This document shows positions 29,387-49,383 of a stretch of 64,000 nt of DNA, piece by piece; position 1 is the first letter of the stretch; each line of letters starts with the position of its first letter. Location: the NCBI GenBank assembly GCA_965225945.1, contig CBDDBZ010000030.1, forward strand, positions 32,001-96,000, read 5' to 3'. Source of the DNA: Alphaproteobacteria bacterium (GTDB lineage Bacteria; Pseudomonadota; Alphaproteobacteria; GCA-2731375). A model generated the notes under the pieces. That model saw only the letters and a list, made by a program, of their open reading frames with translations, did no database searches and was not told where the DNA came from. The position numbers and the translations under genes were made by a program.

Positions 29387-29875
29387 TCAACGATTGACGT
29401 ACATGTGATAGCGCCCGGGCGCCACCGCCTCGGGCGTTTCCATCGCCTCGAAACCAGCGGCCTCCATCACCTGATCGGCAACCACGATGGCGCCGGGCGC
29501 AAGCAAGCGCGCGAGCCTCGGCGCAACCCATGCGGCAAGCGCCACCGACGCCGCCTTGTCGCCACCGCCGATATCGCAATGTGCCAGCACCGCCGGCGCG
29601 CCAATCCGCGCCACGGCGTCCGGAAGGGTGTCTTGGATCTCGCCCAGGAGCATGTGGGCAGCATCCGGAATACTGTCCGGATGCGCGGCCACCTGGCGGT
29701 CGAAGACGAAGATTTCACGATCCGGCATGCGCTCGCGGAGATGGTCGAAGGTGCGGCCGTTGCCGAGTCCGAGTTCGAGCACCGGTCCGCTCCGCGCGCC
29801 GACCAACGAGACCGCCAGGTCGAGGCAGGCGCGCTGGGCTTTCAGGCGGCGGATGAAGGAGTCGAGGCGGCTCAT
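29387..29875 (-). CDS. Small class I SAM-dependent methyltransferase (Methyltransf_17-like)
   Basis: MSRLDSFIRRL..QR..L, VLELGLGNGRTFDHLRE; ATGA overlap with upstream cNMP-binding gene. Confidence 0.85.
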   Translation of the reverse strand: MSRLDSFIRRLKAQRACLDLAVSLVGARSGPVLELGLGNGRTFDHLRERMPDREIFVFDRQVAAHPDSIPDAAHMLLGEIQDTLPDAVARIGAPAVLAHCDIGGGDKAASVALAAWVAPRLARLLAPGAIVVADQVMEAAGFEAMETPEAVAPGRYHMYVNR

Positions 29876-30348
29876 TGATCCGTCGCGGCGCTGGCTTTTG
29901 CCAGGCGTTGATTGGCTTCCGAGAGCTGCAGGTTGGTCTGTTCCAGGCGGCGCGCCAGCTCACGCATGATCTCGATCCCCATTTCGGGGAATTCGGTTAT
30001 CATGCGGAAGAACAGGTCCTTGGAAATTTTCAGGGTCTCGAGTTCGCCCGTGGCCCGGATCGTCGCCGTTCTGGGCACGTCGATCAGAATGGCGATCTCG
30101 CCGACGAATGCGTTCTTCGAGACATGCGCGACCGTGAGTGGCCCGTTCGGCGTATCGATGATGACGTCCGCCTCGCCGCGCACGATGACGTAGGCGGCAT
30201 CGCCGATATCACCCTGGCGGAAAATGTCCTGCTGGGCGGGATAGGTCAGCCGTTCACTGGTGAACGCCAGCAATTTGAGCCGCGAGGGCTCGATGTTGGC
30301 GAAGAGCGGTACGCTCCGCAGCAACTCGACTTCTTCGCTCAGGCTCAT
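29872..30348 (-). CDS. Stand-alone cyclic nucleotide-binding domain protein
   Basis: LRSVPLF, FRQGDIGDAAYVIVRG, phosphate-binding cassette GEIAILIDVPRTAT; no HTH. Confidence 0.93.
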   Translation of the reverse strand: MSLSEEVELLRSVPLFANIEPSRLKLLAFTSERLTYPAQQDIFRQGDIGDAAYVIVRGEADVIIDTPNGPLTVAHVSKNAFVGEIAILIDVPRTATIRATGELETLKISKDLFFRMITEFPEMGIEIMRELARRLEQTNLQLSEANQRLAKASAATDQ

Positions 30349-30372
30349 GGTCTCGCTCCGGGTTCCATTGAA

Positions 30373-33027
30373 TCACTCTTGACTCAACAACTTGTTAAAG
30401 AACGTCCCCTCGACGTTCAGTTCGGCGAAGCTGCCCTGCTCGACGATCTTGCCTTGGCGCATCACGATCACATGATCGAAATGCTCGCCATCACGGGCGC
30501 GATGCAGGGCCCAGATCAGCGCCTTGTGTTCGAACGTTTCCAACAGACCCTCCATTATGCGGGTCTGACTGGCGCCGTCCATGCCGCTGGTGGGCTCGAA
30601 CAGCAACAGCACGTCGGGACGCTTGAGCGTGGCCCGCGCGAGCGCGAGCCGTTGCCGTTGCGCGCTGCTGAGACGCGCCCCGGCTATGCCTACATTGTAT
30701 TGCAGACCCACCTCGGCAACGGTGTGACGCAGGTCCAGCTCGCTGATCACCTCTCGGATCAGCACGCCGACCCGCTCCTGCGCCTGGGCCTGGCCGTAGG
30801 CCACTTTGCCGAATAGAATGTTGTCCTGTAAATTCGCGGCCCGATTGTAGCTCTCCCGATCAAAGAACTCGATCGCGCTCCGTAGTTCATCCGGCAGGTT
30901 TTGCGCGAAGATTTCGCGCGCGTCCAAGATCTTGGTCTGAAATTCGGCATCGACCAGGCCCAGGCGATGGCGCGCCGGCACCAGGACGAACGGTAGCGAA
31001 ATCAGGGTCGAGCGCTCGGCCATGCCGAGGGCTCGCAAATTGTCGCGATCGGCCCGTTGCAAGAGGTTCTGCAATTCCGGCAGTCCATCCGCCGAGACGA
31101 AGCTGAACTGTTGAAAGAGTTCGTGGTCCGGCGGTAGGTCGGCGAAGAGCTCGACCATGGTCGCCGCCAATTGATAGCCGACCTGGAGGAACTTTTGGAT
31201 CAGGCCCGCGTCCTCGAGGACCTCGAGGACGTACTCGTTGGCGGCCAAATGGTCGGAATCGAAGTCGTCGGTGACCGGGTTGCCGAACAGCAGGTTCTCG
31301 CCGACGCTGGCGTTGGAGTTGTAGCGATCGCGGTCGAAGGTCTCCACCAGGGGCGCGATCTCGGGGTCGATCAAACGCTCGCGCAACCGGGTCCTGGCGC
31401 TCATGATCTGCTCCGCGACATCGGCCCGCCGATCGGGATCGATGGTGCCCCGGAGGCCGAATTCGTAGATGTCCTCCGACATTCCCAACATCTCCAGGAC
31501 CTCGAGCGCGCGGGCCGTCAGGCCGGGCAGGTCGCCGACGTCGGCGGAGCCGTAGTCGGTCCAGTCTGCCTCGATGTCATGGTCGATATTGCCGGAGCGC
31601 TGTGCCTCCGAGACATAGTGTGCTCGCTCGCTCGCCGCCGTGCCCTGATAGGTGTGCTCGACCAGCGGTCGATGGCGCAGGCCGAAATACAGATTGTTGG
31701 CGATCGAGCCGGCGAAGATGAAGGAATTCTGACCGACATAGGCGGTCCGACGCCCGACCACGGCCTCGGGCGCGACGGTGAAGTCGACGCCGCCGACGGC
31801 GAGCGAGCCGCGATCGGGGTCGAGCAGGCGGGCGAGCGTGAGCACCAGCTCTTCCCGGCCGCTGCCGGGCGGGCCGATCAGCGCCACCCGACGATCGAGC
31901 GGCACGCGGGCGGAGACGCCGTCGAGCACGGCGATGTCCTGGTCGTCGCGCCACGTCACGTTGGCCAGCGCGATCTCGCCCCGGAGTGGCTCGATGCTCT
32001 CCGGTTCGGTCAACTGCGAGGCTTCGTCCCGCATGCCGGCCGGCTCGAACTGGCTGACCACCTGGTCGTACTTGATGTTGGCGTCGGAATATTGCTGGTA
32101 GTAGGCCAGCAGTTCCTTCCAGGGCGAGGCCAGGTCCTTGTGCGCGGCGATCGCCGCCACCAGCGTGCCGATCTCCAATTCGCGCTGGATTACCAGGTAA
32201 CCGCCGATCGAATAGAAGAAGAAAGGACCCAATTGCTGGATGAAGTTGTTCAGGAACTTGATGACGAACTTCTGCCGGTAGATCCGGTAGCGGACGTCGA
32301 AGATGGCGTGGAGCTGGTTGGCGAAGTGGGATAGGGCGAGGCGCGCGCCGTCATGGGCCCGGATCTCCTGCACCCCCTGCACGGTCTCTCCGATGCGTTC
32401 GGAAAGCCGGCGCACGCGGCGCACCCGCTCCTTGCCGAGCTGATTGACGCGGCGCTGAAGCTTCGGGATCAGCCAGACCTGCAGCGGATAGAGCATGACC
32501 GCCGCGAGCGCCATCCGCCAATCCTGGATGAAGAGGAAGGCCAGGATGGTGAGCAGCGTTCCGCCCTGGAAGGCCGGCTGCGAGAAGGCGTTGCCGATGA
32601 AGCCGCCCAAGGGCTCCACCTCCTGCGAGATCATCGGGATGATCTCGCCCTGGCTTATCTTGCGGAAGGTCGGGAGCGGAAAGCGCAAAATCCGCGAATA
32701 GAGGTCGTAGCGCAGCCGGCGGAGCATGCGCTCGCCGGTCAGGCCCCTGTAAACGTTGATGACGTACTTGAAGCTCTGGTTGATGATCACCAGCACCAGG
32801 AAGGCGGCGCACAGCATGAAGAGGAAGGTGACCTGGTCGACCTCGATGCCCGAGACGATCTCATAGGGGAAGTTGACCGAGCGGCCGCCGATCGCCTCGT
32901 TGATGATCAGCTTCGGCAGTTCGTAAAACAGGTAGAGGAAGGGGAAGGACGCCGCCGCCAGCACCGTCAAGATGATCTGTTGCGGTTTGCTGTAGCGCAG
33001 AACGTAGCGTAAGACCGACTTTTCCAT
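30373..33027 (-). CDS. ABC exporter (TMD+NBD) with degenerate, internally expanded NBD
   Basis: N-terminal ABC membrane domain; Walker A GPPGSGRE, signature LSSAQ, Walker B LLLFE; ~290-aa insertion within the NBD. Confidence 0.88.
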   Translation of the reverse strand: MEKSVLRYVLRYSKPQQIILTVLAAASFPFLYLFYELPKLIINEAIGGRSVNFPYEIVSGIEVDQVTFLFMLCAAFLVLVIINQSFKYVINVYRGLTGERMLRRLRYDLYSRILRFPLPTFRKISQGEIIPMISQEVEPLGGFIGNAFSQPAFQGGTLLTILAFLFIQDWRMALAAVMLYPLQVWLIPKLQRRVNQLGKERVRRVRRLSERIGETVQGVQEIRAHDGARLALSHFANQLHAIFDVRYRIYRQKFVIKFLNNFIQQLGPFFFYSIGGYLVIQRELEIGTLVAAIAAHKDLASPWKELLAYYQQYSDANIKYDQVVSQFEPAGMRDEASQLTEPESIEPLRGEIALANVTWRDDQDIAVLDGVSARVPLDRRVALIGPPGSGREELVLTLARLLDPDRGSLAVGGVDFTVAPEAVVGRRTAYVGQNSFIFAGSIANNLYFGLRHRPLVEHTYQGTAASERAHYVSEAQRSGNIDHDIEADWTDYGSADVGDLPGLTARALEVLEMLGMSEDIYEFGLRGTIDPDRRADVAEQIMSARTRLRERLIDPEIAPLVETFDRDRYNSNASVGENLLFGNPVTDDFDSDHLAANEYVLEVLEDAGLIQKFLQVGYQLAATMVELFADLPPDHELFQQFSFVSADGLPELQNLLQRADRDNLRALGMAERSTLISLPFVLVPARHRLGLVDAEFQTKILDAREIFAQNLPDELRSAIEFFDRESYNRAANLQDNILFGKVAYGQAQAQERVGVLIREVISELDLRHTVAEVGLQYNVGIAGARLSSAQRQRLALARATLKRPDVLLLFEPTSGMDGASQTRIMEGLLETFEHKALIWALHRARDGEHFDHVIVMRQGKIVEQGSFAELNVEGTFFNKLLSQE

Positions 33028-33188
33028 GGCTACGATACGTCGTCCGCGCCCAAGGTGCCCCCTCGGATTCCGCCCGCACTCTACCGGTTGATCGGCAAGA
33101 CTGCAAAGTAACTAAACCGCTTCAGAAAGTGTTTCCGAGACAACGAGGCCTATGCCATAGTCGCGACCAAGAATTAGGGGATCGCGGT

Positions 33189-34448
33189 ATGGGCACCGAC
33201 AAGGTCGGCTCGCGCGTGCTCATCTACAGTCACGACACCTTCGGGCTCGGCCACTTGCGCCGTTGCCGGACCATCGCGCATGCGCTCGTCGAGCGGTTTC
33301 GCAATATCTCGGTGCTGATTCTCTCCGGCTCGCCGATCATCGGCAGCTTCGACTTTCGCTCCCGCGTCGATTTCGTCCGCGTGCCGGGCGTGGTCAAGCT
33401 CAGGAACGGCGAATACACCCCCCTCAACCTGCATATCGACATCGACGAGATGCTGACCATGCGGGCGGAGATCATCCGCCACACGGCCGAGATCTTCGCC
33501 CCCGACGTGTTCATCGTCGACAAGGAACCGTTGGGCCTCAGGGGCGAGGTCGGGCCGACGCTTGCGCTGTTGCGCGAGAAGGGCACACGGCTGGTGCTCG
33601 GCTTGCGCGACGTGATGGACGAACCGCGCAGCCTCGCGCCCGAGTGGCAGCGCAAGAACGTGATGCCGGCGTTGCGCGACCTGTACGACGAAATCTGGGT
33701 CTACGGCCTGCCGCAGATCTGCGATCCGTTGGAGGGCATCGAGCTGTCGAAGCAGGTGCGTCGCAAGATGGTCTACACCGGCTATCTGGAGCGTACGGTG
33801 CCGAGCCCCGGCGCCAACACCATCTTGCCGAAGATGGTCGAGAATCCGTACATCCTGGTCACTACCGGCGGTGGCGGTGACGGCGAGGGACTGATCGAAT
33901 GGGTGCTGCGCGCCTACGAGAGCGATCATCCGCAGATTTACCCGGCTTTCCTGGTGTTGGGTCCGTTCATGCAACCGGAGCGACGGGCTGAATTCATGGC
34001 CCGGGTGGCGCGTCTCGACAATGTCGAGGCGATCACCTTCGATGCCCATATCGAGACCTTGGAGGCGAACGCGGTCGGCGTCGTCGCCATGGGCGGTTAC
34101 AACACCTTCTGCGAGATCCTGAGCCTCGATAAGCGAGCCTTGATCGTGCCCCGGACGGAGCCACGATTCGAACAGTGGATCCGGGTCAGCCGGGCCGAGG
34201 AGTTGGGCCTCGTCCGGATGCTGGAGGACGATGGCGCCTACGATGCCGGCACGATGGCCAAGGCCCTGCTGCAATTGCCTTATCAGAACAAACCCTCGGA
34301 CATCGTCGTACCCGGCCTGCTCGAGGGGTTGGAGAACGTCGCCCGCCTGATCGGCCCCTGGCTTCCCGGCGCGAGCCTGGTGGAGCCGAATGTCGAGGAT
34401 CGCTTCGCCGTGCCGCCCGGCCGGCGCCAGGTCGCCTCGGGGACCTGA
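33189..34448 (+). CDS. GT-B glycosyltransferase (GT28-C-like family)
   Basis: YSHDTFGLGHLRR, VTTGGGGDG, MGGYNTFCEIL. Confidence 0.85.
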   Translation: MGTDKVGSRVLIYSHDTFGLGHLRRCRTIAHALVERFRNISVLILSGSPIIGSFDFRSRVDFVRVPGVVKLRNGEYTPLNLHIDIDEMLTMRAEIIRHTAEIFAPDVFIVDKEPLGLRGEVGPTLALLREKGTRLVLGLRDVMDEPRSLAPEWQRKNVMPALRDLYDEIWVYGLPQICDPLEGIELSKQVRRKMVYTGYLERTVPSPGANTILPKMVENPYILVTTGGGGDGEGLIEWVLRAYESDHPQIYPAFLVLGPFMQPERRAEFMARVARLDNVEAITFDAHIETLEANAVGVVAMGGYNTFCEILSLDKRALIVPRTEPRFEQWIRVSRAEELGLVRMLEDDGAYDAGTMAKALLQLPYQNKPSDIVVPGLLEGLENVARLIGPWLPGASLVEPNVEDRFAVPPGRRQVASGT

Positions 34449-34462
34449 CGGACCCAAGCTCG

Positions 34463-35725
34463 ATGCGCCGGGTCGCCTTCGTTCTCAAGGGCTATCCCAG
34501 ACTCTCGGAAACCTTCATCGCGCAGGAGATACGCGCTCTGGAGCTGCGCGGGCTCGACATTCGCATCATTTCGCTGCGTCATCCGACCGAGAGCGCACGC
34601 CACCCGGTCCACGGCGAGATCCAGGCCGAGGTGTCCTATTTGCCGGAATATCTTTATCAGGAGCCGTTGCGCGTGCTTCGCGCCTGGTGGGCGATGCGGC
34701 GCGAGGCTCGCTACCCGGAGACCCGAGCCCTCTGGCTTCGCGACCTCCGGCGCGACCCGACGCCCAACCGGGTGCGTCGATTCGGCCAGGCCTTGGTGCT
34801 GGCCTGGGAACTGCCGGAAGATATCGATTCTCTGCACGCGCATTTCCTGCACACGCCGGCCTCCGTCACCCGCTACGCCGCTCAGCTGACGTCGCGACCG
34901 TGGAGCTGTTCGGCGCACGCCAAGGACGTCTGGACGACGCCCGAGTGGGAGCTCGCCGAAAAGCTCGCCGAATGTACTTGGCTGGTCACCTGCAACGGAT
35001 CGGCGGAGGCGCGCCTCGCCGCCCTGGCGCCGGCGGCGAACGCCGGCGGGACGGTGTCGCTGATCTATCACGGTTTGGACCTCGCGCGCTTTCCGCCGCC
35101 GCCCGCCGGCGGGCGCGACGCCGACGGTTCACGCGCCGAGGATCCGGTCCGCCTGCTCTCGGTCGGCCGCGCGGTGGCGAAGAAGGGCTACGGCGACTTG
35201 CTGGCCGCGCTGGCTCGATTGCCGGCTGATCTCGCCTGGCGCCTCGAACACATCGGCGGTGGGCCGGAGTTGAAGGCGCTTCGCGCCCGGGCCGAGCGAC
35301 TGGGCCTCGCCTCCCGAATCACTTGGCGCGGCGCCCTGGCGCAGGCCGAGGTGCTGGAGGCCTATCGCCGGGCGGATCTCTTCGTTCTCGCCAGCCGCAT
35401 CGCCGCTTCGGGCGACCGCGACGGTCTGCCGAACGTATTGATGGAAGCGCAGAGCCAGGCGGTCGCCTGCTTGGCGAGCGCGGTCGCCGGCATCCCGGAA
35501 CTGATCCGCGACGGCGAAACCGGCCGCCTGGTGCCACCCGAACGGGTCGACGACCTGGCAGGAGCGCTCGAGGCGCTGATCCGCGACCCCGATGCCCGCC
35601 GTCGCCTGGGGCGCGCGGGTCAGGCCCGCCTGGTGGGCGAGTTCGACGCCGATCCCTGGCTCGATCGGCTGGCCGAGCGCTTCGCCCTGGTGGCGAGGGA
35701 AGCGACGAGACGGGCCCGGGCCTGA
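34463..35725 (+). CDS. GT4 glycosyltransferase
   Basis: LKGYPRLSETFIAQEI, HAHFLH, VGRAVAKKG, DGLPNVLMEA. Confidence 0.9.
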   Translation: MRRVAFVLKGYPRLSETFIAQEIRALELRGLDIRIISLRHPTESARHPVHGEIQAEVSYLPEYLYQEPLRVLRAWWAMRREARYPETRALWLRDLRRDPTPNRVRRFGQALVLAWELPEDIDSLHAHFLHTPASVTRYAAQLTSRPWSCSAHAKDVWTTPEWELAEKLAECTWLVTCNGSAEARLAALAPAANAGGTVSLIYHGLDLARFPPPPAGGRDADGSRAEDPVRLLSVGRAVAKKGYGDLLAALARLPADLAWRLEHIGGGPELKALRARAERLGLASRITWRGALAQAEVLEAYRRADLFVLASRIAASGDRDGLPNVLMEAQSQAVACLASAVAGIPELIRDGETGRLVPPERVDDLAGALEALIRDPDARRRLGRAGQARLVGEFDADPWLDRLAERFALVAREATRRARA

Positions 35726-35738
35726 CCCGGTGACGCCC

Positions 35739-36875
35739 GTGCGGATCGCCTTCCACGCGCCGCTGAAGCCGCCCGACCATCCGACCCCCTCGGGCGACCG
35801 AGGGATGGCGCGTCTGTTGATCCGGGCGCTCGGCGCGGCCGGCCACGAGGTCGAGGTGGCGAGCCGGCTGCGCGCCTATGATGGCCGAGGCGTGCCGCGT
35901 ATTCAGGCGGCGATCCGCGACGTCGCGCGCACCCGCGCCGAGCGCTGGCTGGAGCAGGTGGCGGCGGGCGCCCGGCCTCGGCCGGACCTCTGGTTCACCT
36001 ATCACCTCTATCACAAGGCACCGGATTGGCTGGGGCCGCGGATAGCGGCCGGCCTCGGGGTGCCCTATGTGGTGGCCGAAGCTTCGCACGCGCCGAAGCG
36101 GGCCGGCGGGCCCTGGGACATCGGCTACCGCCAGGCGGAAGCGGCGATCCGCGCCGCCGACAGGGTGCTTTGCCTGACGCGCCTCGACATGGCCTGCGTC
36201 GCGCCGCTGCTGGCGGAGCCGGAACGGCTAGTCCGCCTGCCGCCTTTCATCGATCTCGAACCCTACGCCCGGGCGCTCGCCGATGCGCCGCGCGCCAGGG
36301 CCGAGGTGGCCCGCGCGCACGGACTCGATCCGGCGGTGCCCTGGTTGCTGGCCGTCGCTATGATGCGGCCGGGCGACAAGCTCGCCTCCTACCAACGGCT
36401 CGCCGCCGCGCTCGCCCGGCTCGCCGCGCGCGAGTGGCGATTGCTGGTCGTCGGCGACGGCCCGGCCAGGGGCGAGGTGCGCCGGGCGCTCGCGCCGCTT
36501 CGCCGCGTCGTGTCGTATCTGGGCGCGCTCCCGGCCGAGGCGCTGCCGCGCGTCTATGCCGCCTCGGATCTCTATCTCTGGCCGGGCGTGGGGGAGGCCT
36601 ACGGAATGGCATTCCTGGAAGCGCAGGCGGCGGGTCTCGCGGTCGTCGCCGGGCGGGAACGCGGCATCCCCGACGTGGTGCGCGACGGCGAGACCGGGGT
36701 GCTGACGCCGCCCGGCGACGATCGCGCCTTCGCCGAGACGGTCTGGGCCTTGCTGGCGGATTCCGCGCGGCGGCGCGCGATGGGACGCCGGGCGACGGCC
36801 TGGGTGGCGGCGGAACGCGACATCGCGGCGACGGCGCGGCGGCTCGACGACGCGTTGGCGGGGCTGGTGGCGTGA
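35739..36875 (+). CDS. GT4 glycosyltransferase (GTG start 35730 or 35739)
   Basis: APLKPPDHPTPSGDR, EAYGMAFLEAQAAG (EX7E). Confidence 0.88.
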   Translation: MRIAFHAPLKPPDHPTPSGDRGMARLLIRALGAAGHEVEVASRLRAYDGRGVPRIQAAIRDVARTRAERWLEQVAAGARPRPDLWFTYHLYHKAPDWLGPRIAAGLGVPYVVAEASHAPKRAGGPWDIGYRQAEAAIRAADRVLCLTRLDMACVAPLLAEPERLVRLPPFIDLEPYARALADAPRARAEVARAHGLDPAVPWLLAVAMMRPGDKLASYQRLAAALARLAAREWRLLVVGDGPARGEVRRALAPLRRVVSYLGALPAEALPRVYAASDLYLWPGVGEAYGMAFLEAQAAGLAVVAGRERGIPDVVRDGETGVLTPPGDDRAFAETVWALLADSARRRAMGRRATAWVAAERDIAATARRLDDALAGLVA

Positions 36876-37462
36876 CCCGCGTCGCCTTCCTCCGCCACGC
36901 CCCCACGACCTGGAACCAGGAGGGCCGGTTGCAGGGCCGCGCCGACCTGCCGCTCGCGCCGGAAGGTCGGGCGGGTCTCGCCGGGTGCCGGGTGCCGGCC
37001 GCGCTCGACGGCGCGCAGTGGCACGTCAGTCCGCTGACGCGGGCGCGCCAGACGGCGGCGCTGCTGGGCCATGGCGAGGCGGCCGTGGAGCCGGCCCTGA
37101 TCGAGATCGACTATGGTGAATTCGAGGGCGCGCGCCTCGCCGATCTCCGTGCCCGCCTGGGCCCGGAGATGACGGCGAACGAGGCCCGCGGCCTCGATTT
37201 CCGCCCGCCCGGCGGGGAAAGCCCGCGCGAGGTGCGCCGCCGCGTCGCCGCCTGGCTCGCGCAGCTCGCGGCGGTGGGCGGCCATCACGTCGCGGTCACC
37301 CACAAGACGGTCATCCGGAGCGTGCTCTCCCTCGCCCTCGACTGGGACATGGTGCGCAAGCAGCCGGTCCGGCTGAACTGGCGCCGGCTGCACCTCTTCA
37401 CCCTTGACGCCGACGGCCGGCCCGTGCCCTTTCGCCTCGACCTACCCCTGGAGCGGCGATGA
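36872..37462 (+). CDS. Histidine phosphatase family protein
   Basis: LRHAPTTWN..GRLQGR, SPLTRARQTA, GGES, VTHK; GTGA overlap. Confidence 0.9.
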   Translation: MTRVAFLRHAPTTWNQEGRLQGRADLPLAPEGRAGLAGCRVPAALDGAQWHVSPLTRARQTAALLGHGEAAVEPALIEIDYGEFEGARLADLRARLGPEMTANEARGLDFRPPGGESPREVRRRVAAWLAQLAAVGGHHVAVTHKTVIRSVLSLALDWDMVRKQPVRLNWRRLHLFTLDADGRPVPFRLDLPLERR

Positions 37463-38619: not shown

Positions 38620-38620
38620 G

Positions 38621-41750: not shown

Positions 41751-43686
41751 CCCTCAACGCCGGAGACGTGACATAATCAGGGGACGCAAGCGGGACGTGA
41801 CCTCGGCGGTCGCGAGCCTTCTACTTGCCGTCTGGTCGACGGCCGGCGCGGCGGCGGCGTATCGGGAAACGCCGTCGTTGAAAGCGGACGTCGAGGCCGG
41901 AAAGTTGCCGCCGATCGAGGCGCGGCTGCCCCGGGTGCCGCGCATCGTCACCCTCGACGGCAAGGGCCGGACGATCGGCAAGCACGGCGGGGAGCTGAAG
42001 ACGCTGATCGGGCGGGCCAAGGATGTCCGCCTGCTCGTGGTCTACGGCTATGCCCGCCTGGTGGTCTACGACGAGAAATTCGAGATCGTGCCGGACATCG
42101 CCGAAAAGGTGACGGTGGAGGAAGGGCGTCGATTCACCTTTCATCTGCGCGCGGGCCACAAATGGTCGGACGGCCAGCCCTTCACCGCCGAGGACTTCCG
42201 CTACTACTGGGAAGACGTCGCCAACAATTACGATCTCTCGCCCGCGGGCCCGCCCAGGATCCTGCGGGTGGCGGGCAAGCCGCCGGTCTTCGAGGTCGTC
42301 GATCGCCACACCGTGCGTTACACCTGGGAGGCGCCCAACCCCTTCTTCCTGCCCCGGCTGGCCGGCGCCTCGCCCCTCTTCATCCATCGCCCGGCGCACT
42401 ATCTGAAACGGTTTCACCAAAAATACGCCGACCCGGAGGCGCTGGAGGCGGCGCTCAAGGCGGTCAGGCGGCGCAACTGGGCGGCACTCCACAACCGGCT
42501 CGACAACATGTACCGCTTCGACAATCCGGCGCTGCCGACGTTGCAGCCCTGGGTCAACGTCTCGAAGCCGTCCGCGACCCGCTTCGTCGCGCGGCGCAAT
42601 CCCTATTTCCACCGCGTCGACGCCGAGGGCCGGCAACTGCCCTATATCGACAGCGTGGTGATGAACATCTCCGACGGGAAGCTGATCCCGGCCAAGGCCG
42701 GTACCGGCGAGGTCGACATCCAGGCCCGCAGCCTGTTCTTCAACAACTACACCTTCCTCAAGGAGAACGAGGAGGCGCACGGTTTCAAGACCCTGCTGTG
42801 GCGCATCGCCAAGGGTTCGCACCTGGCGATTTTCCCCAACCTCAACCATAACGACGAGGTCTGGCGCGCGCTCTTCCGTGACGTCCGCTTCCGCCGTGCG
42901 CTGAGCTTGGCGATCGACCGCGCGGCGATCAACGAGACCATGTTCTTCGGCCTGGCGAGCGAGGCCAACAACACCGTGCTGGCGGAAAGCCCTCTCTTCA
43001 AGGACGCGTACCGGACCGCGTGGGCCGAATACGACCCCGAGGCCGCCGCCGACCTGCTGGACCAGATCGGCCTTGGGGAGAGCAGCGACGACGACATTCG
43101 CCTGTTGCCCGACGGCCGGCCCTTGGAAATCATCATCGAGACCGCGGGCGAGGACACCGAGCAGACCGATATCCTGCAATTGGTGCAGGAAAATTGGGCG
43201 GAGGTCGGCATCAAGCTCTTCATCAAGCCCTCGCAGCGCGAGATCTTCCGCAACCGAGTCTTTGCCGGGCAGACCATGATGAGCGTGTGGAGCGGCCTGG
43301 AGAACGGCGTGCCCTCGGCCGACACCGCGCCGAACGAACTCGCGCCGACCTCACAGCAGCAATTGCAATGGCCGAAGTGGGGACAGCATTACGAGACGAG
43401 CGGCCTCGCGGGCGAGGCCCCGGACATGGACGAGGCCAAGGAATTGGCGCGGCTCAACGTCGCCTGGCTCGCCGCGCCGGACAAAGCGGCGCGCGCGGCG
43501 ATCTGGCACCAAATGCTGAAGCTGCACGCCGAGCAGGTCTTCACCATCGGCCTGATCTCCGGGGTCAAGCAGCCGATCGTGGTCAAGAACGGCCTTCGCA
43601 ACGTGCCCGAGGAGGGGATCTACAACTGGGACCCGGGGGCGCAGCTCGGCATCTACCGGCCCGACACCTTCTGGTTCGATCGCTGA
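41710..43686 (+). CDS. Family 5 ABC substrate-binding protein (start uncertain; GTG 41797 possible)
   Basis: GKLPPIEARLP, KWSDGQPFTAEDF, RNPYFHRVD..GRQLPYID, FRRALSLAIDR. Confidence 0.92.
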   Translation: MSAPKKNRKATGPNPQRRRRDIIRGRKRDVTSAVASLLLAVWSTAGAAAAYRETPSLKADVEAGKLPPIEARLPRVPRIVTLDGKGRTIGKHGGELKTLIGRAKDVRLLVVYGYARLVVYDEKFEIVPDIAEKVTVEEGRRFTFHLRAGHKWSDGQPFTAEDFRYYWEDVANNYDLSPAGPPRILRVAGKPPVFEVVDRHTVRYTWEAPNPFFLPRLAGASPLFIHRPAHYLKRFHQKYADPEALEAALKAVRRRNWAALHNRLDNMYRFDNPALPTLQPWVNVSKPSATRFVARRNPYFHRVDAEGRQLPYIDSVVMNISDGKLIPAKAGTGEVDIQARSLFFNNYTFLKENEEAHGFKTLLWRIAKGSHLAIFPNLNHNDEVWRALFRDVRFRRALSLAIDRAAINETMFFGLASEANNTVLAESPLFKDAYRTAWAEYDPEAAADLLDQIGLGESSDDDIRLLPDGRPLEIIIETAGEDTEQTDILQLVQENWAEVGIKLFIKPSQREIFRNRVFAGQTMMSVWSGLENGVPSADTAPNELAPTSQQQLQWPKWGQHYETSGLAGEAPDMDEAKELARLNVAWLAAPDKAARAAIWHQMLKLHAEQVFTIGLISGVKQPIVVKNGLRNVPEEGIYNWDPGAQLGIYRPDTFWFDR

Positions 43687-43783: not shown

Positions 43784-43819
43784 ACCGCCCCGCTAGTGGA
43801 TAGAATCCACTAGGGCGGT
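43784..43819. repeat. Intergenic hairpin with core CTAGTGGAT-aga-ATCCACTAG
   Basis: Perfect 9-bp-arm core 43793-43813 extended by ACCGCCC/GGGCGGT. Confidence 0.8.
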
Positions 43820-43855
43820 TGGTTTAGGACTCGCCGAGGGGACGCGGGGCGTTTT

Positions 43856-44881
43856 ATGTTCGGTTACCTGGTGCAGCGGGTCTTGATCATGATCCCGACG
43901 CTGCTGGTGATCAGCGGCGTCACCTTTTTGATCATTCAAGCGCCGCCCGGCGACTATCTCTCCAACGAGATGGCGCGCCTGATCGCCGACGGCGACCACG
44001 CGGCGGCGGAGAAGCTGGCCTTCCTCCGCAAGGAATTCGGCCTCGACAAGCCGATGCTGGAGCAGTACGTGGTCTGGCTCGGCGTCTGGCCCGGCAACAA
44101 CGGTTTCTCCGGTATATTGCAGGCTGATTTCGGCTGGTCGTTCGAATACCAGCTGCCGGTCGACCAAGTGGTCGGAGACCGCCTGCTGCTCTCCTTTGTG
44201 CTGAACTTCGTCACCATCCTGTTCGTCTACGCGGTCAGCTTCCCGATCGGCGTCTACACCGCCGTCCGCCAGTATTCGTTCGGCGATCACGCGATGACCT
44301 TCATCGGCTACATCGGACTGGCGACGCCCAACTTCCTGCTGGCGCTGATCCTGCTGTTCCTCGCCAAGACCTTCTTCGGGGTTTCGATCGGCGGCTTGAT
44401 GGACGACGACTACATCGACCAGCCGATGTCCTGGGACAAGTTCGTCTCGATCCTGGAGCATCTGGTCGTGCCGGTGATCGTGATCGGCACGTCAGGCACG
44501 GCCGGCATGATTCGCCGCCTTCGCGCCAACCTGCTGGACGAATTGCAGAAGCAATACGTGGTGACGGCGCGGACCAAGGGCATGAGGGCGAGCCGATTGC
44601 TGATCAAGTACCCACTCCGCATGGCGCTCAATCCCTTCGTCGCCGACATCGGCAACCTGTTGCCGCAGATGATCTCCGGCTCGGCCATCGTTTCCGTGGT
44701 GATGAGCCTGCCGACCTCGGGCCCGATGCTGGTCCACGCGCTGCAGAGCCAGGATCAGTATCTCGCCGGCTCCTTCCTGTTGTTCCTCTCCTGCCTCACC
44801 GTGATCGGCATGTTCGTCTCCGACATCCTGTTGGCGGTGTTGGATCCCCGGATCCGGCTGGGCGCGGAGGTGGGCCGATGA
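43856..44881 (+). CDS. ABC importer permease (OppB-like)
   Basis: GLDKP...QY..W, YVVTARTKG EAA-type loop, LDPRIR. Confidence 0.93.
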   Translation: MFGYLVQRVLIMIPTLLVISGVTFLIIQAPPGDYLSNEMARLIADGDHAAAEKLAFLRKEFGLDKPMLEQYVVWLGVWPGNNGFSGILQADFGWSFEYQLPVDQVVGDRLLLSFVLNFVTILFVYAVSFPIGVYTAVRQYSFGDHAMTFIGYIGLATPNFLLALILLFLAKTFFGVSIGGLMDDDYIDQPMSWDKFVSILEHLVVPVIVIGTSGTAGMIRRLRANLLDELQKQYVVTARTKGMRASRLLIKYPLRMALNPFVADIGNLLPQMISGSAIVSVVMSLPTSGPMLVHALQSQDQYLAGSFLLFLSCLTVIGMFVSDILLAVLDPRIRLGAEVGR

Positions 44882-46065
44882 CCAGGCCCGACAGCCCTCC
44901 CGAACACTGGGTCAGCGAGGAGCCGTTCGATCCCCGCACCATCGAGCGCCTGACGCCGGAACAGGAGCGTTTCTACCTCGCGGGCCAATGGCGGCTGATG
45001 TGGTGGAAACTGCGCCGCCATCCCCTGGCGGTGATCAGCGGGATCTTCTTGCTGGTGATCTATGGCACGATCGTGATCAGCGAGATCATCGCCCCGCACG
45101 GTCTGGCCAAGCGCCATGCCCGCTACATCTATGCGCCGCCGCAGTCGGTGCGTTTCTTCCACGAAGGCGACTTCATCGGCCCCTTCGTCCATCCCTATAA
45201 GCGGAGCCGCGATCTCGTGACCCTGAAGCGGATCTACACCGAGGACGAGACGAAGGTTTGGAAAATCGGCCTTTTCTGCAGCGGTGACAAGTACCGGCTC
45301 TGGGGCGTCTTCAAGATGCGCCTGCATCTCTTCTGCGCCGAGCGCACGAGCAAGAGCGGCGAGCTCGAAGCGGCGCCGATCTTCCTCTTCGGCACCGACC
45401 GCCTGGGGCGCGACATCTTCAGCCGGGTGATCTACGGCGCCCGGATTTCGCTCACCGTCGGTCTGATCGGGATCACCATCAGCTTCGTCATCGGCCTAAC
45501 CCTCGGCGGCCTCGCCGGCTATTACGGCGGCTGGGTCGACAATGTGGTGCAGCGGTTGATCGAAATGCTGCGCTCCTTTCCCGAACTGCCGCTCTGGATG
45601 GCGCTCTCGGCGGCACTGCCGGTGACCTGGAGTCCGGTCGCCGTCTTCCTCGGCATCACCGTGATTCTGGGGCTGTTGGACTGGCCGGGACTGGCCCGCG
45701 CCGTCCGCTCGAAGCTGTTGGCGCTGCGCGAGGAGGACTATGCCGCCGCCGCGACGCTGATGGGTGCCAGCCCCAAGCGGGTCATCGCCCGCCATCTCCT
45801 GCCCAACTTCATGAGCCACATCATCGCCTCGTTGACGCTCTCGATCCCCTCGATGATCCTGGGCGAGACCGCGCTCTCCTTCCTCGGCCTCGGCCTCCGG
45901 CCACCGGTGACGAGCTGGGGCGTGTTGCTGAACGAGGCGCAGAACATCAACGCCGTCGCCACCTATCCCTGGCTGATCCTGCCGATGGTGCCGGTGATCC
46001 TGGTGGTGCTGGCCTTCAACTTCTTCGGTGACGGCTTGCGCGACGCGGCCGATCCATACAACTAG
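44878..46065 (+). CDS. ABC importer permease (OppC-like)
   Basis: FGTDRLGRD, GARISL, ETALSFLGLG, FNFFGDGLRDAADP. Confidence 0.93.
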   Translation: MTRPDSPPEHWVSEEPFDPRTIERLTPEQERFYLAGQWRLMWWKLRRHPLAVISGIFLLVIYGTIVISEIIAPHGLAKRHARYIYAPPQSVRFFHEGDFIGPFVHPYKRSRDLVTLKRIYTEDETKVWKIGLFCSGDKYRLWGVFKMRLHLFCAERTSKSGELEAAPIFLFGTDRLGRDIFSRVIYGARISLTVGLIGITISFVIGLTLGGLAGYYGGWVDNVVQRLIEMLRSFPELPLWMALSAALPVTWSPVAVFLGITVILGLLDWPGLARAVRSKLLALREEDYAAAATLMGASPKRVIARHLLPNFMSHIIASLTLSIPSMILGETALSFLGLGLRPPVTSWGVLLNEAQNINAVATYPWLILPMVPVILVVLAFNFFGDGLRDAADPYN

Positions 46066-46080
46066 CGGGAGCGCGCGGCT

Positions 46081-47433
46081 CTACGCGTGCAACACCACCA
46101 GATCCACCGGCTCGCCAAGGCCCTCCACGGCACGGCCGGGGCGGGGCTCGGGCGGCCTCTCGGGGCGGTAGCCCTCGGCCTGGGCGCGGGCCAACGTCGC
46201 CGCCGTGGTGAGCGCCGTGGCGCTTTCCTGCTTGTTCTGCTTTTCGAGCTTGGCGGCGAGGTTGACCGGCTCGCCGATCACCGTGAATTCGAGTCGGCTC
46301 TCTTCGCCGACGGCGCCGAACACCACCGGGCCCGCCGCCACGGCGAAGCCGATCGCCAAGGGCGCCAAGCCCTGCGCCTGGCGGGCTCGGGCCCAATCGT
46401 CGGCTTCGCGGACCAGCGCATCCACGGCGCGGAGCGCGTCGGCGCTCGCCGTCGGGCTCGGCCATACGGCACCGAAGGTGGCGAGGATGCCGTCGCCCAA
46501 GAACTTGTCGATGCTGCCGCCATGGGCCTGAATGACGCCGACCATGCGGTGCTGGTATTCCGCCAGCAGCACCATCAGGGCGTCCGGATCGCTCGACATC
46601 GCGAGATGGGTGAAGCCGCGGACATCTGTGACCAGCACCGCCGCCTCTCGCAGTTCGCCCCGGCCCGGGCGAATCGGAGCCTCGGCGGCGGTGATACGAT
46701 CGGCGATCTCCGGCGCGAAGAAGCGTTCGAGATCGCGGTGCGCCACCTCCTCCGCCACCGAGGCGACCAATAGGCGACGGGCCCGCATCAGGGCCAGGGC
46801 CAGGATCGCCGTGGTCAGCAGGATGGTGATGATCTTGTCGAATTCGGCGCCGATCAGGACCATGGCCGAGGTCATGTAGAGGACGTAGTCGTCGGTGATT
46901 CCCATGCCGGGCGCCGTCGAGCTGATCAGCGCATAGTTCAGCAGCACCAGCCAGCCGAGCGCCGCCGACCCGCCCGCCAAGAGCACGTAGCCGGCGGAGA
47001 AGCGAAGCGCGCGGAGCGCCACGAAGATGAAAACGTAGAGCAGCGTCGGCGCCTTCAGATAGAACGCCGCCGGCTGGCCGTATTGCAGATGGAAGCTCCA
47101 GATCAGCCCCATCAGCAGGCTCATGTCGAAGAACACGGAGAGGGCCACGAACCAAGCAGGCGCGAAGTCACGGCGCAGCAGGATCAGGCGCAACATCGAG
47201 AAGCCGATATAGAGGCCGAGCGCCACCGGCACCGGGGCGAAGGGTTGTTCGGCGGTGAAGGTCTTCGGCGCCAGCGCGTAGAGGGCGGACCAGATGCAGC
47301 CGATCAGCAGTTGGGCGCCGGCGATCAAGCGCTCGCTCTCGATCTCGCGGGCCGCGATCAGCCGGGCCACCCGGGCCGGCGGCGCCGCCTCGAGGCCGGT
47401 GCCGAGCAAGACCCGGCGAAGTCTCTCGATCAT
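46081..47433 (-). CDS. Membrane-bound class III adenylate/guanylate cyclase
   Basis: Multi-TM N-terminus; TDVRGFT, IDKFLGDGILATFG, EFTVIGEPVNLAAKLE. Confidence 0.92.
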   Translation of the reverse strand: MIERLRRVLLGTGLEAAPPARVARLIAAREIESERLIAGAQLLIGCIWSALYALAPKTFTAEQPFAPVPVALGLYIGFSMLRLILLRRDFAPAWFVALSVFFDMSLLMGLIWSFHLQYGQPAAFYLKAPTLLYVFIFVALRALRFSAGYVLLAGGSAALGWLVLLNYALISSTAPGMGITDDYVLYMTSAMVLIGAEFDKIITILLTTAILALALMRARRLLVASVAEEVAHRDLERFFAPEIADRITAAEAPIRPGRGELREAAVLVTDVRGFTHLAMSSDPDALMVLLAEYQHRMVGVIQAHGGSIDKFLGDGILATFGAVWPSPTASADALRAVDALVREADDWARARQAQGLAPLAIGFAVAAGPVVFGAVGEESRLEFTVIGEPVNLAAKLEKQNKQESATALTTAATLARAQAEGYRPERPPEPRPGRAVEGLGEPVDLVVLHA

Positions 47434-47524
47434 GCCGATTCCCTCCCTGGGGAGCCTTCACACCGCGGCGGGTCCGGACGCCGCCCGAAGTTTCGGCGCC
47501 CCGGCCAGCGGAGCCGCGGGCGCG

Positions 47525-48361
47525 TCAGCGCTTTTCGAGCCACAGGCTGGAGGCGAGCGGACCGGGCCAGCCAGGAAGCGACGCAAGTGGACTCGCCGCC
47601 ACACGCGCGGCCATCCGGCGGCGAACGTGGGCGGCGGCAAAGAGCGGTGCGTAGCCACCCGAGGTGAGCAGCGTCGCCACGGCATTCTGCTCGTTGTAGC
47701 CACGCCAACCCCATTCGGCGGGATAGTCGTCGGCGAGGAAGATGTCGTGGAAATGGATCAGGGTGCCCGGCCGCAGCATCGGCAGCACCCGATTTAGCAG
47801 GTCGTCGACGTCGGTTCCGGGCATCAGCACGTGGCTCGAATCGACGAAGAGCATGTCGCCCGGAGCAAGGGGTTCGAATAGCCCCGTCCCGACCGCGCCC
47901 AACGGCCGTTCGATCAGTCGGATGGCGAGACCCCGGAGCGTGGCCCGGGGTGCCGGGTCGATTGCCGTCAGCTCCGTGGCCAGGCCGCCGTCGGCGATCG
48001 CGCGCGCGAGGAACCGGGTCGAATGGCCGGATCCGATCTCGACGATGCGGGCCGGCGCCCGCGCCCGCACCAAGGCGTAGGTGGCGGCCGCGTCGAGCGG
48101 CGGGAACCAGTCCTGGTTCCACCGCGGCGCCGGCGGCGCCTCGTCGCCGATGGCCTCGAGCGCCCCTCGTCGGGCATCGATCTCGTCCAACAGCAGGGCA
48201 AAGGCCGGCTCGCTCTCCCCGAGCAGCGCTTCCACCGGGTCGTAGCACGGCGCCTCCCCCGGTGGTGCCAATCGGTCGGCGTAACGATGGGGGATGAAGA
48301 AGCCGCGCCGGGCGAGGCTGAAGACCGTGGCGAGGCCCATGCAGAGCACGCGCGCCCGCAT
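47525..48361 (-). CDS. Class I SAM-dependent methyltransferase (Methyltransf_24-like)
   Basis: IVEIGSGHST, FVDSSH, IHFHDIF..DYP..W...YNEQ. Confidence 0.88.
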   Translation of the reverse strand: MRARVLCMGLATVFSLARRGFFIPHRYADRLAPPGEAPCYDPVEALLGESEPAFALLLDEIDARRGALEAIGDEAPPAPRWNQDWFPPLDAAATYALVRARAPARIVEIGSGHSTRFLARAIADGGLATELTAIDPAPRATLRGLAIRLIERPLGAVGTGLFEPLAPGDMLFVDSSHVLMPGTDVDDLLNRVLPMLRPGTLIHFHDIFLADDYPAEWGWRGYNEQNAVATLLTSGGYAPLFAAAHVRRRMAARVAASPLASLPGWPGPLASSLWLEKR

Positions 48362-48495
48362 CTAGGACGACACCCCGTGCGGCGCGGCGGCGATCATCGT
48401 CACCACCGGCAATACCAACCGATGTAAGGAACTCGCCATTCATGGCGGTGGGTACAAGCGGCTCTCCGGGCGATGTCGGGCGAGCGGATCATGCC

Positions 48496-49314
48496 TTAGA
48501 GCTCGATCACCAGGCCCTCGCGGGCGACGACGGTGCCGGGTCGGCGCACCTCGGCCTTGGCGGCGATCTGGTCCATGAAGTCGTCGTCGTGGTCGGGGTC
48601 GTGATGGAAGATCACCAGGGTCTCGACCGAGGCCGCATCGCACAGCCGACAGCCCTCCTCCCAGGTCGAGTGACCCCAACCGACCCGCGTGGGATACTCC
48701 TCGTCGGTGTAAGTAGCGTCGTAAATCACCAGGTCCGCGCCCTCGATCAAGGCGAGGATATTCTGGTCGAGGGCGCCCGGTTCGTGCTCGGTGTCGGTCA
48801 GATAACAGACCGCGCGGCCGGCGTGTTCCACCCTGTAGCCGGTGGCGCGGTTCGGATGGTTGAGCGGCGCGGTCTTGACCCGGACGTCCGCGCCGAGCTC
48901 CAGCGTCGTCCCCACCGCGAAATCGCGATAGTCGACGGCGGCGGCAAAAATCCCCGGCGGCACCGGGAACAGTGGGGCGATCATCATGTCTTCCAGCACC
49001 GACTTCAGCGTGTGCTCCGGCAACAAGTGTCCGGCCCAGAGGCGGAATTGGTTCGTCGGATCGAAGAACGGCTTGAAGAAGGGAATGCCGCAGACGTGGT
49101 CGAAATGCGTGTGGGTCAGCAGCAAATCCAGATCCCATGGCCCGCCCCGCGCGTGCAAGGCGTTGCCGAGATAGCGGAGGCCGGTGCCGGCGTCCAGCAA
49201 CAGTGGCCGGCCGCCGCACTCGATCTCGATCGAGGAGGTGTTGCCGCCGTAACGCCGAGTGTCCGCGTTGGGGGTCGAGATGCTGCCGCGCACACCCCAG
49301 AAACGGACCGCCAT
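48496..49314 (-). CDS. MBL-fold metallo-hydrolase (RNase Z/phosphodiesterase-like)
   Basis: FWGVRGS, YGGNTS, LDAGTG, THTHFDH, WGHS, FHHDP. Confidence 0.9.
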   Translation of the reverse strand: MAVRFWGVRGSISTPNADTRRYGGNTSSIEIECGGRPLLLDAGTGLRYLGNALHARGGPWDLDLLLTHTHFDHVCGIPFFKPFFDPTNQFRLWAGHLLPEHTLKSVLEDMMIAPLFPVPPGIFAAAVDYRDFAVGTTLELGADVRVKTAPLNHPNRATGYRVEHAGRAVCYLTDTEHEPGALDQNILALIEGADLVIYDATYTDEEYPTRVGWGHSTWEEGCRLCDAASVETLVIFHHDPDHDDDFMDQIAAKAEVRRPGTVVAREGLVIEL

Positions 49315-49383
49315 CCGTCCTCCCGCGGGCGCCCGTGTTACATCGCTACACATGATATTGGCGGGTCCGCCCGGCGCGCGCCC

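Follow-up and report, generated by a model that had tools for sequence, protein, structure and literature searches.

A 17-gene alphaproteobacterial locus of glycosyltransferases, an ABC exporter-like protein, an importer and cyclic-nucleotide proteins belongs to the PPP / opt-red module

The PPP cluster on pSymB of Sinorhizobium meliloti, whose name stands for 'phazolicin-protecting polysaccharide' (Travin et al. 2023, mBio, PMC10128002), and the redA/redB locus on plasmid pA of Rhizobium etli CIAT 652 are the closest described relatives of the locus reported here. This locus lies in a window of 64,000 nucleotides from an alphaproteobacterium of the GTDB lineage GCA-2731375 (NCBI GenBank assembly GCA_965225945.1, contig CBDDBZ010000030.1, positions 32,001 to 96,000 of the forward strand) and is a member of the PPP / opt-red module, which is already named and genetically studied and whose product is chemically uncharacterised. 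The initial annotation had presented it as an undescribed system. That claim falls, since the locus is orthologous to the S. meliloti cluster smb21252-smb21271 and matches the R. etli redA/redB locus; its relatives belong to a pathway that has a name and phenotypes, though not a chemically characterised product. On the other hand, the wider picture drawn there, of glycoconjugate synthesis, export, import and cyclic-nucleotide parts as one module, is largely borne out.

Twelve of the 17 genes are orthologous to genes of the series smb21252-smb21270, with 37-62% identity. The first glycosyltransferase, which we call GT_A, shares 53% identity with SMb21264 (redA; pSymB 837144-838358), and the coordinates of this match are those of SMb21264, redA, COG4671, 'PPP-biosynthesis' in Data Set S1 of PMC10128002; this data set and the annotation of strain ml45 were our sources for the S. 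meliloti cluster. The transferases GT4_B, GT4_C and GT_D correspond to SMb21265 (redB, 55%), SMb21252 (45%) and SMb21266 (42%), the CE4 deacetylase to SMb21253 (40%), and the metallo-beta-lactamase (MBL) hydrolase to SMb21254 (44%). The importer genes are 52-62% identical to SMb21260-63 (ATPase and SMb21260, 61%; OppB-like permease and SMb21262, 57%; OppC-like permease and SMb21263, 62%), the binding protein being the orthologue of SMb21261. The ATP-binding cassette (ABC) exporter-like protein corresponds to SMb21268/69 (37%) and the small cyclic-nucleotide (cNMP)-binding protein to SMb21270 (56%). Alignment of the S. meliloti exporter passes from one reading frame to another near residue 116 (pSymB stretches L102, 20559-23206, and L103, 22724-25373), which is either a frameshift or two genes (SMb21268 and SMb21269); SMb21269 is annotated as 2091 bases only. 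A tblastn search against plasmids gave 274 records, mainly from Rhizobium and Sinorhizobium. On R. etli pA the order is a cyclase, four 'oligopeptide ABC' genes, redA, redB, a third transferase, the exporter and a cNMP protein of 155 amino acids (aa) annotated as 'regulator'; these genes are 38-61% identical to those of the window, and a Methyltransf_17 homologue (43% identity) lies near the cluster.

The features that define the module are found together in the window: a redA-type COG4671 transferase encoded with a redB-type family 4 glycosyltransferase (GT4) and a second COG4671 transferase; next to them a PepT-family importer made up of a fused ATPase, two permeases and a binding protein of family 5; and a small cNMP-binding protein as the partner of a half-size ABC exporter. 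The S. meliloti cluster shares the GT4, CE4 and MBL genes, the four importer genes, redA, redB, the second COG4671 transferase, the exporter and the cNMP protein, and it likewise holds a class III cyclase and methyltransferases, in an order that is rearranged relative to the window. Differences go both ways. Relative to the window, S. meliloti additionally encodes an FkbM methyltransferase, a DUF3095 protein, a polysaccharide lyase and a nucleotide-sugar oxidase, and no Pfam match to an oxidase or lyase of these kinds was found within the window, whereas the window adds the histidine phosphatase, a protein with two transmembrane helices (2-TM protein), Methyltransf_17 and Methyltransf_24. No orthologue of the phosphatase is present in either the R. 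etli or the S. meliloti cluster, and the R. etli stretch inspected also has no CE4, GT4_C or 2-TM gene. Methylation is common to the rhizobial and window forms through non-orthologous enzymes. The products of the S. meliloti cluster and of the window locus probably differ.

Gene content was determined from the open reading frame (ORF) listing, a frame filter based on G+C at third codon positions (GC3) and Pfam and NCBIfam scans. The locus consists of 17 genes in three blocks at 29387-49353. The left block (minus strand) encodes a Methyltransf_17 methyltransferase, the cNMP-binding protein and the exporter; the central block (plus strand, 33189-46065) holds 11 genes for four transferases, the phosphatase, the deacetylase, the 2-TM protein and the four importer components; and the right block (minus strand) encodes a membrane class III cyclase, a Methyltransf_24 methyltransferase and the MBL hydrolase. 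The initial annotation had counted 16 contiguous genes; its named genes and coordinates stand and the count is corrected to 17. Its functional assignments agree with the Pfam, NCBIfam and fold searches, including a deacetylase that Pfam misses. The overlaps that it described are real: direct reading of the junctions gave six 4-base overlaps (ATGA five times, GTGA once) and one TGAGATG. The left and central blocks diverge from an intergenic region at 33028..33188, which was read in the sequence, is assigned to neither strand and presumably carries the promoters of the exporter and transferase operons.

It is evident that the 17-gene locus is a conserved module, with an arrangement far beyond chance. 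GT_A relatives were found in 29 of 41 genomes searched (24/24 genomes of the window's family, and 4 of the 16 other families of the class), and species-representative genomes contain at least 562 GT_A-encoding loci, which puts the spread of the module at several hundred proteobacterial species or more. The window proteins were compared by tblastn with the best 80 of these at least 562 loci, and genes on either side were counted in loci with enough flanking sequence. In the 46 loci whose downstream flank reaches 9.5 kb or more, GT_D was present in 46, GT4_B and GT4_C in 44 each, the ATPase in 42, the deacetylase in 41, the phosphatase in 39, the binding protein in 36 and the 2-TM protein in 30. 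Upstream (at least 4.5 kb, 59 loci), the exporter and the cNMP protein were each found in 40 and Methyltransf_17 in 27; the exporter and cNMP protein were seen in 40/53 loci not labelled Betaproteobacteria and in 0/6 so labelled. In all five genomes checked whose loci lack the upstream exporter, an exporter homologue is encoded elsewhere. The core of transferases, deacetylase and importer recurs in Alpha-, Beta- and Gammaproteobacteria. The form with the phosphatase and the 2-TM protein is the common one outside rhizobia, and the window, with its different methyltransferases, shows this widespread form. Co-occurrence of the genes as a block was confirmed in closer relatives as well, where the 12-gene run from exporter to OppC is collinear in 10/10 genomes and Methyltransf_17 and the cNMP protein are present in 9/10, while rearranged orders occur across classes. 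A Rhodoferax metagenome-assembled genome (MAG), for example, has one co-directional operon from GT_A to OppC followed by the exporter and the cNMP protein, and then a convergent cyclase. This comparison isolates three oddities: an importer that accompanies the synthesis genes more constantly than any other partner, a family-wide non-canonical ATP site in the exporter, and a sensor that is sometimes fused to the exporter.

Phenotypes are reported for S. meliloti. According to the transposon-sequencing data of PMC10128002, SMb21252, 21253, 21264, 21265, 21266 and 21269 are depleted under phazolicin (log2 fold change (log2FC) -3.5 to -5.4), as are the oxidase SMb21256 and the lyase SMb21259 (about -4.4 to -4.7) and the FkbM methyltransferase SMb21271, the last not significantly at the lowest dose (-2.28, adjusted p 0.15). 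SMb21252, 21265 and 21269 are among the symbiosis genes listed in the supplement of Flores-Tinoco et al. (2020), and PPP genes are reported to be induced under predation by Myxococcus (PMC10315480). In the one organism for which these tests are reported, the module is protective against a peptide antibiotic and adds to fitness in nodules. The idea of an osmolyte or diffusible signal, raised in the initial annotation, finds no pointer here; the published phenotypes are those of envelope protection and nodule fitness.

Taken together, we consider that the locus is probably the full, non-rhizobial form of the PPP / opt-red module and makes, exports and recaptures a glycan. The transferases would assemble a short amino-sugar glycan, with N-acetylglucosamine (GlcNAc) deacetylated to glucosamine, on a phosphorylated primer other than undecaprenyl phosphate; the primer would be dephosphorylated and the glycan methylated. 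The exporter would then move the product across the inner membrane, with the small cNMP-binding protein docking on its enlarged nucleotide-binding domain (NBD) and gating it. The six-transmembrane (6TM) cyclase, with its adenylate-type residues, would most likely supply cAMP, which the MBL hydrolase may remove. The product would strengthen the envelope barrier, and the importer would recapture it or its fragments from the periplasm. A soluble periplasmic oligosaccharide is our preferred product over a longer surface polymer or a glycolipid. Once the product is solved, a dozen genes that now carry 'hypothetical' or generic labels would gain an annotation in hundreds of genomes.

Several points weigh against this proposal. 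The word 'polysaccharide' in PPP is a speculation of the authors of PMC10128002, and the literature searched for PPP and its locus tags, in which only PMC10128002 and PMC10315480 mention PPP, contained no chemical characterisation of the product; a search combining redA, redB and Rhizobium had no match. In the phazolicin data of that paper the four importer genes SMb21260-63 have log2FC of only -0.41 to +0.53 (adjusted p 1), the sensor gene SMb21270 is not significant (+1.09, +1.46 and +3.13; p 1, 1 and 0.26; 5 TA sites), and the MBL gene SMb21254 has no effect (about 0). Re-import is therefore not needed for phazolicin protection, and the re-uptake of the product claimed in the initial annotation stays at the level of a proposal. 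The structure matches of the GT4 enzymes say little on the acceptor because they are limited to the donor-binding half. The exporter may not pump at all, because the Walker B aspartate is missing throughout the family and the Walker A lysine in the window's genus. Moreover, R. etli opt mutants were reportedly impaired in growth on oligopeptides in the work of Vos et al. (2007, Environ Microbiol 9:1665), which would favour a peptide substrate. Finally, among the ten relatives the cyclase is adjacent in six and Methyltransf_24 and the MBL gene in five, so the right block is more loosely attached than the rest of the locus; the xthA-like, response-regulator and ribA genes on the flanks keep their synteny in the family too, and some of the right-block linkage may therefore be inherited gene order. 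Such flanks, with the regulator of OmpR type, are also what could be said for the view that all three blocks are unrelated neighbours brought together by accident of gene order. That view is hardly credible, given that the set recurs rearranged in R. etli, S. meliloti, the Rhodoferax MAG and gammaproteobacterial and Hyphomicrobiaceae MAGs and that the sensor and exporter are fused in some lineages.

The genetics bear as well on the possibility that the product is a high-molecular-weight surface polysaccharide, whose fragments the importer would scavenge with no cycle of export and re-import. Travin et al. read the S. meliloti locus as one for a barrier polysaccharide, and in their data both the strong phenotypes of the rhizobial lyase and oxidase and the null result for the importer fit such a polymer (PMC10128002). 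However, the lyase and oxidase are absent from the window, and no polymerase, synthase, chain-length or outer-membrane export gene was seen in the window or in the loci inspected. Pfam scans of all coding ORFs of the window gave no match to Wzx, Wzy, Wza, Wzc, a priming transferase or nucleotide-sugar genes, nor to any polymerase or synthase, chain-length regulator or outer-membrane export family, in agreement with the earlier statement that this is not a standard locus for extracellular polysaccharide, lipopolysaccharide or capsule. Casual scavenging is also hard to square with the importer, which across classes accompanies the transferases more constantly than any other partner. We therefore regard a surface polymer as unlikely.

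The locus contains four cytoplasmic GT-B glycosyltransferases, two retaining GT4 enzymes and two GT28-like enzymes. GT_A (33189..34448) is a COG4671/GT28-like protein (NCBIfam TIGR00661, 2.2e-8, below cut-off) with no match to solved structures by sequence at E 1, and GT_D (37459..38619; Pfam Glyco_tran_28_C, 3.4e-9) is its paralogue with 25% identity. GT4_B (34463..35725, start codon read; Pfam Glycos_transf_1, 4.2e-31) and GT4_C (35730..36875; Pfam Glyco_trans_1_4, 5e-27) are the family 4 members. The nearest solved chains of GT4_C are 3c4q/3c48, 2jjm/3mbo and the PimB'-type mannosyltransferase 3oka, with E about 1e-14 and over the C-terminal half only. The first two pairs, labelled only as predicted or group 1 glycosyltransferases, we take to be MshA and BshA. 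Among NCBIfam models, too, GT4_C scores best with those of BshA and MshA, far under the cut-off (72.7 against 273.7 bits). Downstream of GT4_C, and overlapping it by GTGA and GT_D by ATGA, lies a branch 1 histidine phosphatase of 196 aa (36872..37462; His_Phos_1, 6e-35).

The next gene (38621..39388) encodes a protein of 255 aa that has no Pfam match and no solved relative by sequence. Nevertheless its AlphaFold2 (AF2) model (pLDDT 96.9) matches CE4 deacetylases in Foldseek with probability 1.00 and TM-scores of 0.53-0.73, including PgdA, chitin deacetylases and acetylxylan esterases. D27-D29, H79/H83, P131-R134, D174/W178 and H217/H218 are invariant in 32 sequences, and with residues assigned to motifs by our reading of the consensus, all five motifs of CE4 (NodB-homology) deacetylases, among them the Asp-His-His metal triad and the catalytic Asp and His, are present along with the deformed (beta/alpha) barrel fold. 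The earlier designation as a deacetylase was right, because the residues of the CE4 motifs are invariant and the fold is that of CE4. It is followed by the 2-TM protein of 162 aa (39385..39873), recognized by its predicted helices, with a soluble C-terminal part, ATGA overlaps on both sides and no Pfam match at E 0.01.

As judged from these family assignments, the pair of GT4_C and the phosphatase would fit GlcNAc transfer to a phosphorylated acceptor, dephosphorylation and CE4 deacetylation. The same logic of GT4 GlcNAc transfer, there to a small acceptor that is phosphorylated or acidic, with subsequent dephosphorylation and de-N-acetylation, is found in the early steps of mycothiol and bacillithiol synthesis (MshA, the MshA2 phosphatase and MshB; BshA and BshB). 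These systems differ in that their deacetylase is of the LmbE type and not CE4, and the window has no cysteine ligase but three further transferases and two transporters.

The transferases also give some reason to think of a membrane glycolipid, in which a GT4 enzyme would put GlcNAc on a phospholipid or diacylglycerol, the CE4 enzyme would deacetylate it, the others would extend it, the exporter would act as an MsbA-like flippase and the importer would recover head groups. GT4_C and GT4_B match the phosphatidylinositol mannosyltransferases PimA and PimB', and a GlcNAc-phosphatidylglycerol synthase model matches GT4_C at 4.5e-12 and GT4_B at 4.2e-4, far below cut-off; the best NCBIfam and fold matches of the exporter are lipid or lipid-linked flippases (MsbA, 7.8e-64, below cut-off; PaMsbA); and the envelope-barrier phenotypes reported for S. 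meliloti (PMC10128002) are compatible with a lipid. However, the lipid-enzyme matches are all weak and confined to the donor-binding domain, a lipid acceptor needs no histidine phosphatase, yet one is present in 39/46 loci, and a sugar-type binding protein with its importer suits a soluble ligand better. A glycolipid is an improbable product in our judgement.

The exporter-like protein (30373..33027, minus strand, 884 aa) has a six-helix transmembrane domain with long intracellular loops, followed by an NBD, as type IV ABC exporters have (ABC_membrane, 1.7e-23; split ABC_tran match). The AF2 model (pLDDT 84.8) confirmed the type IV (MsbA/TmrAB-like) fold, with TmrAB, PCAT1 and MsbA as top Foldseek matches (E about 1e-18 to 1e-20). 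Canonical ABC motifs are GxxGxGK[ST] for Walker A, hhhhDE for Walker B and LSGGQ for the signature. A survey of 56 exporter sequences, of which the commonest variants were listed, departs from these motifs of ATP-hydrolysing proteins. Walker A is GPPGSGREE in the window and its genus, with Lys replaced by Arg and Ser/Thr by Glu, and GxxGSGK[ED]E in most relatives; Walker B is LLLFE in the window and hhhhSE in most relatives (SD in a few), with Asp in no variant listed; and the signature is LSSAQ or LSAAQ. A homodimer of the exporter would therefore have two non-consensus ATP sites.

Another peculiarity is the size of the NBD. Q-loop and signature lie 352-366 residues apart in all 56 sequences, and the insert of about 290 aa is conserved and modelled at pLDDT above 90. 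The segment 'xNIxFG plus helices', which ordinarily comes once after the Q-loop, is present within the insert in two extra copies (residues about 430-780), and residues 562-718 match residues 719-884 as an internal repeat (z 7.3 against shuffles). By these sequence comparisons the NBD looks like the result of a partial triplication of its helical subdomain. In a bolder reading the protein would not be a pump but a cAMP-gated conduit that combines an ABC fold with a hydrolysis-deficient ATP site and a triplicated helical subdomain, and the module as a whole would cycle a glycan through the periplasm. A small oligosaccharide of amino-sugar type, synthesized in the cytoplasm, would then be released on a cyclic-nucleotide signal and used or consumed in the envelope, and its remnant would be re-imported. 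If true, the module would resemble mycobacterial trehalose recycling and would set the permeability of the envelope to peptides and phenazines. We think this doubtful.

Export of a glycan by a half-size type IV ABC protein, as in our preferred reading, has a precedent in the cyclic beta-1,2-glucan system (NdvB/Cgs with NdvA/ChvA), to whose ChvA/NdvA models the window exporter shows weak matches. These glucans are synthesized in the cytoplasm without undecaprenyl phosphate, are delivered to the periplasm and function in the envelope and in symbiosis in the same bacterial groups. On the other hand, the window exporter is far under the ChvA cut-offs (144.6 against 733 bits), and the giant GT84 synthase of that system is replaced in the window by four GT-B enzymes, the deacetylase and the phosphatase. 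Cyclic glucans are not known to have an importer or a cNMP sensor.

The sensor candidate (29872..30348, minus strand, 158 aa; Pfam PF00027, E 1.3e-17) is a stand-alone cyclic-nucleotide-binding protein without a DNA-binding domain. The residues of its phosphate-binding cassette (G83, E84, R93, T94 and A95) are invariant or nearly so in 32 sequences. In two loci it is fused to the C-terminus of the exporter (L073, 1018 aa; L078, 1034 aa), and open frames of 1101 and 1082 aa suggest that Thalassospira probably carries this fusion as well. Binding between sensor and exporter was likely beforehand because such fused proteins exist. Complex prediction with the NBD (residues 330-884) gave a score of 0.60 against 0.00 for the best control, with a partner pLDDT of 85 and at least 95% agreement of predicted contacts between runs. 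Of the 157 solved complexes used for calibration, 116 reached the mark, as did 2 of the 215 mismatched pairs; scores of 0.60 or less include just 18 of the 157 solved complexes and both mismatches that passed, so the prediction lends weak support to the sensor binding the NBD. The TIGR03896 cNMP proteins of bacteriocin-type ABC exporters, also small cNMP proteins encoded beside a type IV exporter, are a precedent, at the level of annotation, for export linked to cNMP. The window protein is not a TIGR03896 member (32.6 bits against a cut-off of 161), and those systems carry peptides; the NBD of the window exporter is different and enlarged. Next to the sensor gene on the minus strand, a methyltransferase of the S-adenosylmethionine-dependent Methyltransf_17 family (29387..29875, 162 aa; PF12692, E 9e-57) overlaps the stop of the cNMP gene with its start (ATGA).

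The cyclase (46081..47433, minus strand, 450 aa) is a membrane-anchored class III enzyme (Guanylate_cyc, 2.9e-8). Alignment to solved cyclases places Lys and Thr at its two specificity positions as in the adenylate cyclase CyaB (3r5g), and the metal Asp residues and the transition-state Asn are present; the related guanylate-type chain 2w01 has Glu and Gly, respectively, at these positions. The transition-state Arg is replaced by Lys, and the Lys, the Thr and this replacement are kept in 6/6 family orthologues. The R. etli and S. meliloti clusters include cyclases as well, and enzymes of the same architecture are found beside the cluster in a gammaproteobacterial MAG (452 aa) and in a Hyphomicrobiaceae MAG (443 aa). 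The cNMP control parts claimed in the initial annotation do travel with the cluster, in several arrangements, sometimes fused to the exporter. In the cluster-linked 6TM cyclases of Gammaproteobacteria-labelled MAGs (L075, L074 and L060), the first specificity position carries Gln (VINQFQGDA) and not Lys. As far as these residues can tell, cluster-linked cyclases of different lineages may make different nucleotides.

The other genes of the right block are a Methyltransf_24 methyltransferase (47525..48361, 278 aa; PF13578, 8.2e-14) and the MBL-fold phosphodiesterase-type hydrolase (48496..49353, start at 49353 or 49314; Lactamase_B_2, 7.2e-25; HxHxDH motif). A longer overlapping ORF at 47430-48443 was considered as the methyltransferase gene and rejected, as the high GC3 and the Pfam match favour the frame 47525-48361; the distant locus L073 has two Methyltransf_24 genes within its cluster. 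For the MBL hydrolase, NCBIfam gave weak matches to RNase Z and a cyclic-nucleotide phosphodiesterase, far below cut-off, and solved structures gave remote RNase Z matches only; its substrate may be a cNMP or a phosphodiester of the glycan. Two described cyclic-nucleotide-linked systems were compared and set aside: the Clr/cAMP-regulated polysaccharide cluster nodP2-smb21248 of S. meliloti (PMC5498481) is a different cluster of the Wzx/ExoP type, and the cGMP cyst system of Rhodospirillum centenum (gcyA/B/C and cgrA; PMC4681086), compared by layout only, has a dissimilar RC1_3785-gcyB-gcyC-cgrA arrangement with a CRP-type regulator.

The importer is encoded by the last four genes of the central block: a fused double ATPase of the PepT family (Opp/Dpp/Gsi/Yej-type; 39870..41750; NCBIfam GsiA 1.2e-183 and YejF 3.1e-160, both below cut-off), a periplasmic family-5 solute-binding protein (41710..43686; SBP_bac_5, 7.6e-60; signal-peptide-like N-terminus, the true start may be later), an OppB-like permease (43856..44881; BPD_transp_1, 2.8e-29) and an OppC-like permease (44878..46065; BPD_transp_1, 3.8e-31, and OppC_N). 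The nearest solved relative of the binding protein is 5ipw (3.7e-97), without a stated ligand. Among solved relatives with a known ligand, SPH1118, which binds pectin oligosaccharides (2.6e-64), and MelB, which binds alpha-galactosides (5.8e-36), come closest, in keeping with the earlier remark that some family 5 proteins carry oligosaccharides. On this comparison of sequences, the protein would belong to a sugar-binding subgroup of family 5.

An importer of peptides or muropeptides would have a different meaning for the locus, with the MurG-like transferases and the CE4 enzyme serving to recycle or modify imported fragments or precursors of the cell wall and not to make a new glycan. In S. 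meliloti the annotation calls the binding protein a putative murein-peptide/oligopeptide binder and describes redA as 'slightly similar' to MurG; peptidoglycan is the substrate of many CE4 deacetylases, and the related YejBEF-YepA system is reported to import muropeptides in Agrobacterium (PMC9790009). All the same, DppA (5.6e-15) and the murein-peptide binder MppA (4.2e-9) are much more distant from the window protein than SPH1118 and MelB, and recycling leaves the dedicated exporter, two GT4 enzymes and the methyltransferases unexplained. The tie of opt to oligopeptide use, reportedly made by Vos et al. 2007, would be a further argument for peptides. The opt operon of that work is presumably the R. 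etli locus discussed here, as we take it from the gene names in the record. There opt lies upstream of redA/redB on the same strand, and opt insertions could act by polarity on the transferases. Transport of peptides is, in our view, very unlikely to be the role of the locus.

On the flanks of the locus (28470-29276 and 49384-51434), an xthA-like exonuclease gene, an OmpR-type response-regulator gene (73-81% identity) and a ribA-like gene keep their positions in several relatives, so the chromosomal surroundings of the cluster are old and stable. Elsewhere the window carries housekeeping genes (dnaE, hsp33, petABC, rho, amtB, ftsK, lolA and ribA) together with RTX-repeat proteins. The latter are two very large proteins, or one that is broken, at 53451-59908. 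The first ORF (53475-57611, 1378 aa) has a FecR domain and HemolysinCabind repeats, and the second (57455-59908, 817 aa) overlaps it in another frame. Two ORFs of 147 aa (57958-58401 and 59308-59751) were rejected as genes, being antisense shadows of an RTX-repeat gene. An IS630-like transposase (DDE_3 and HTH; 18348-19511) lies between a UbiH-like monooxygenase gene and amtB, where the G+C is lower (0.63), and a HicB-like antitoxin gene (2180-2626) adjoins dnaE.

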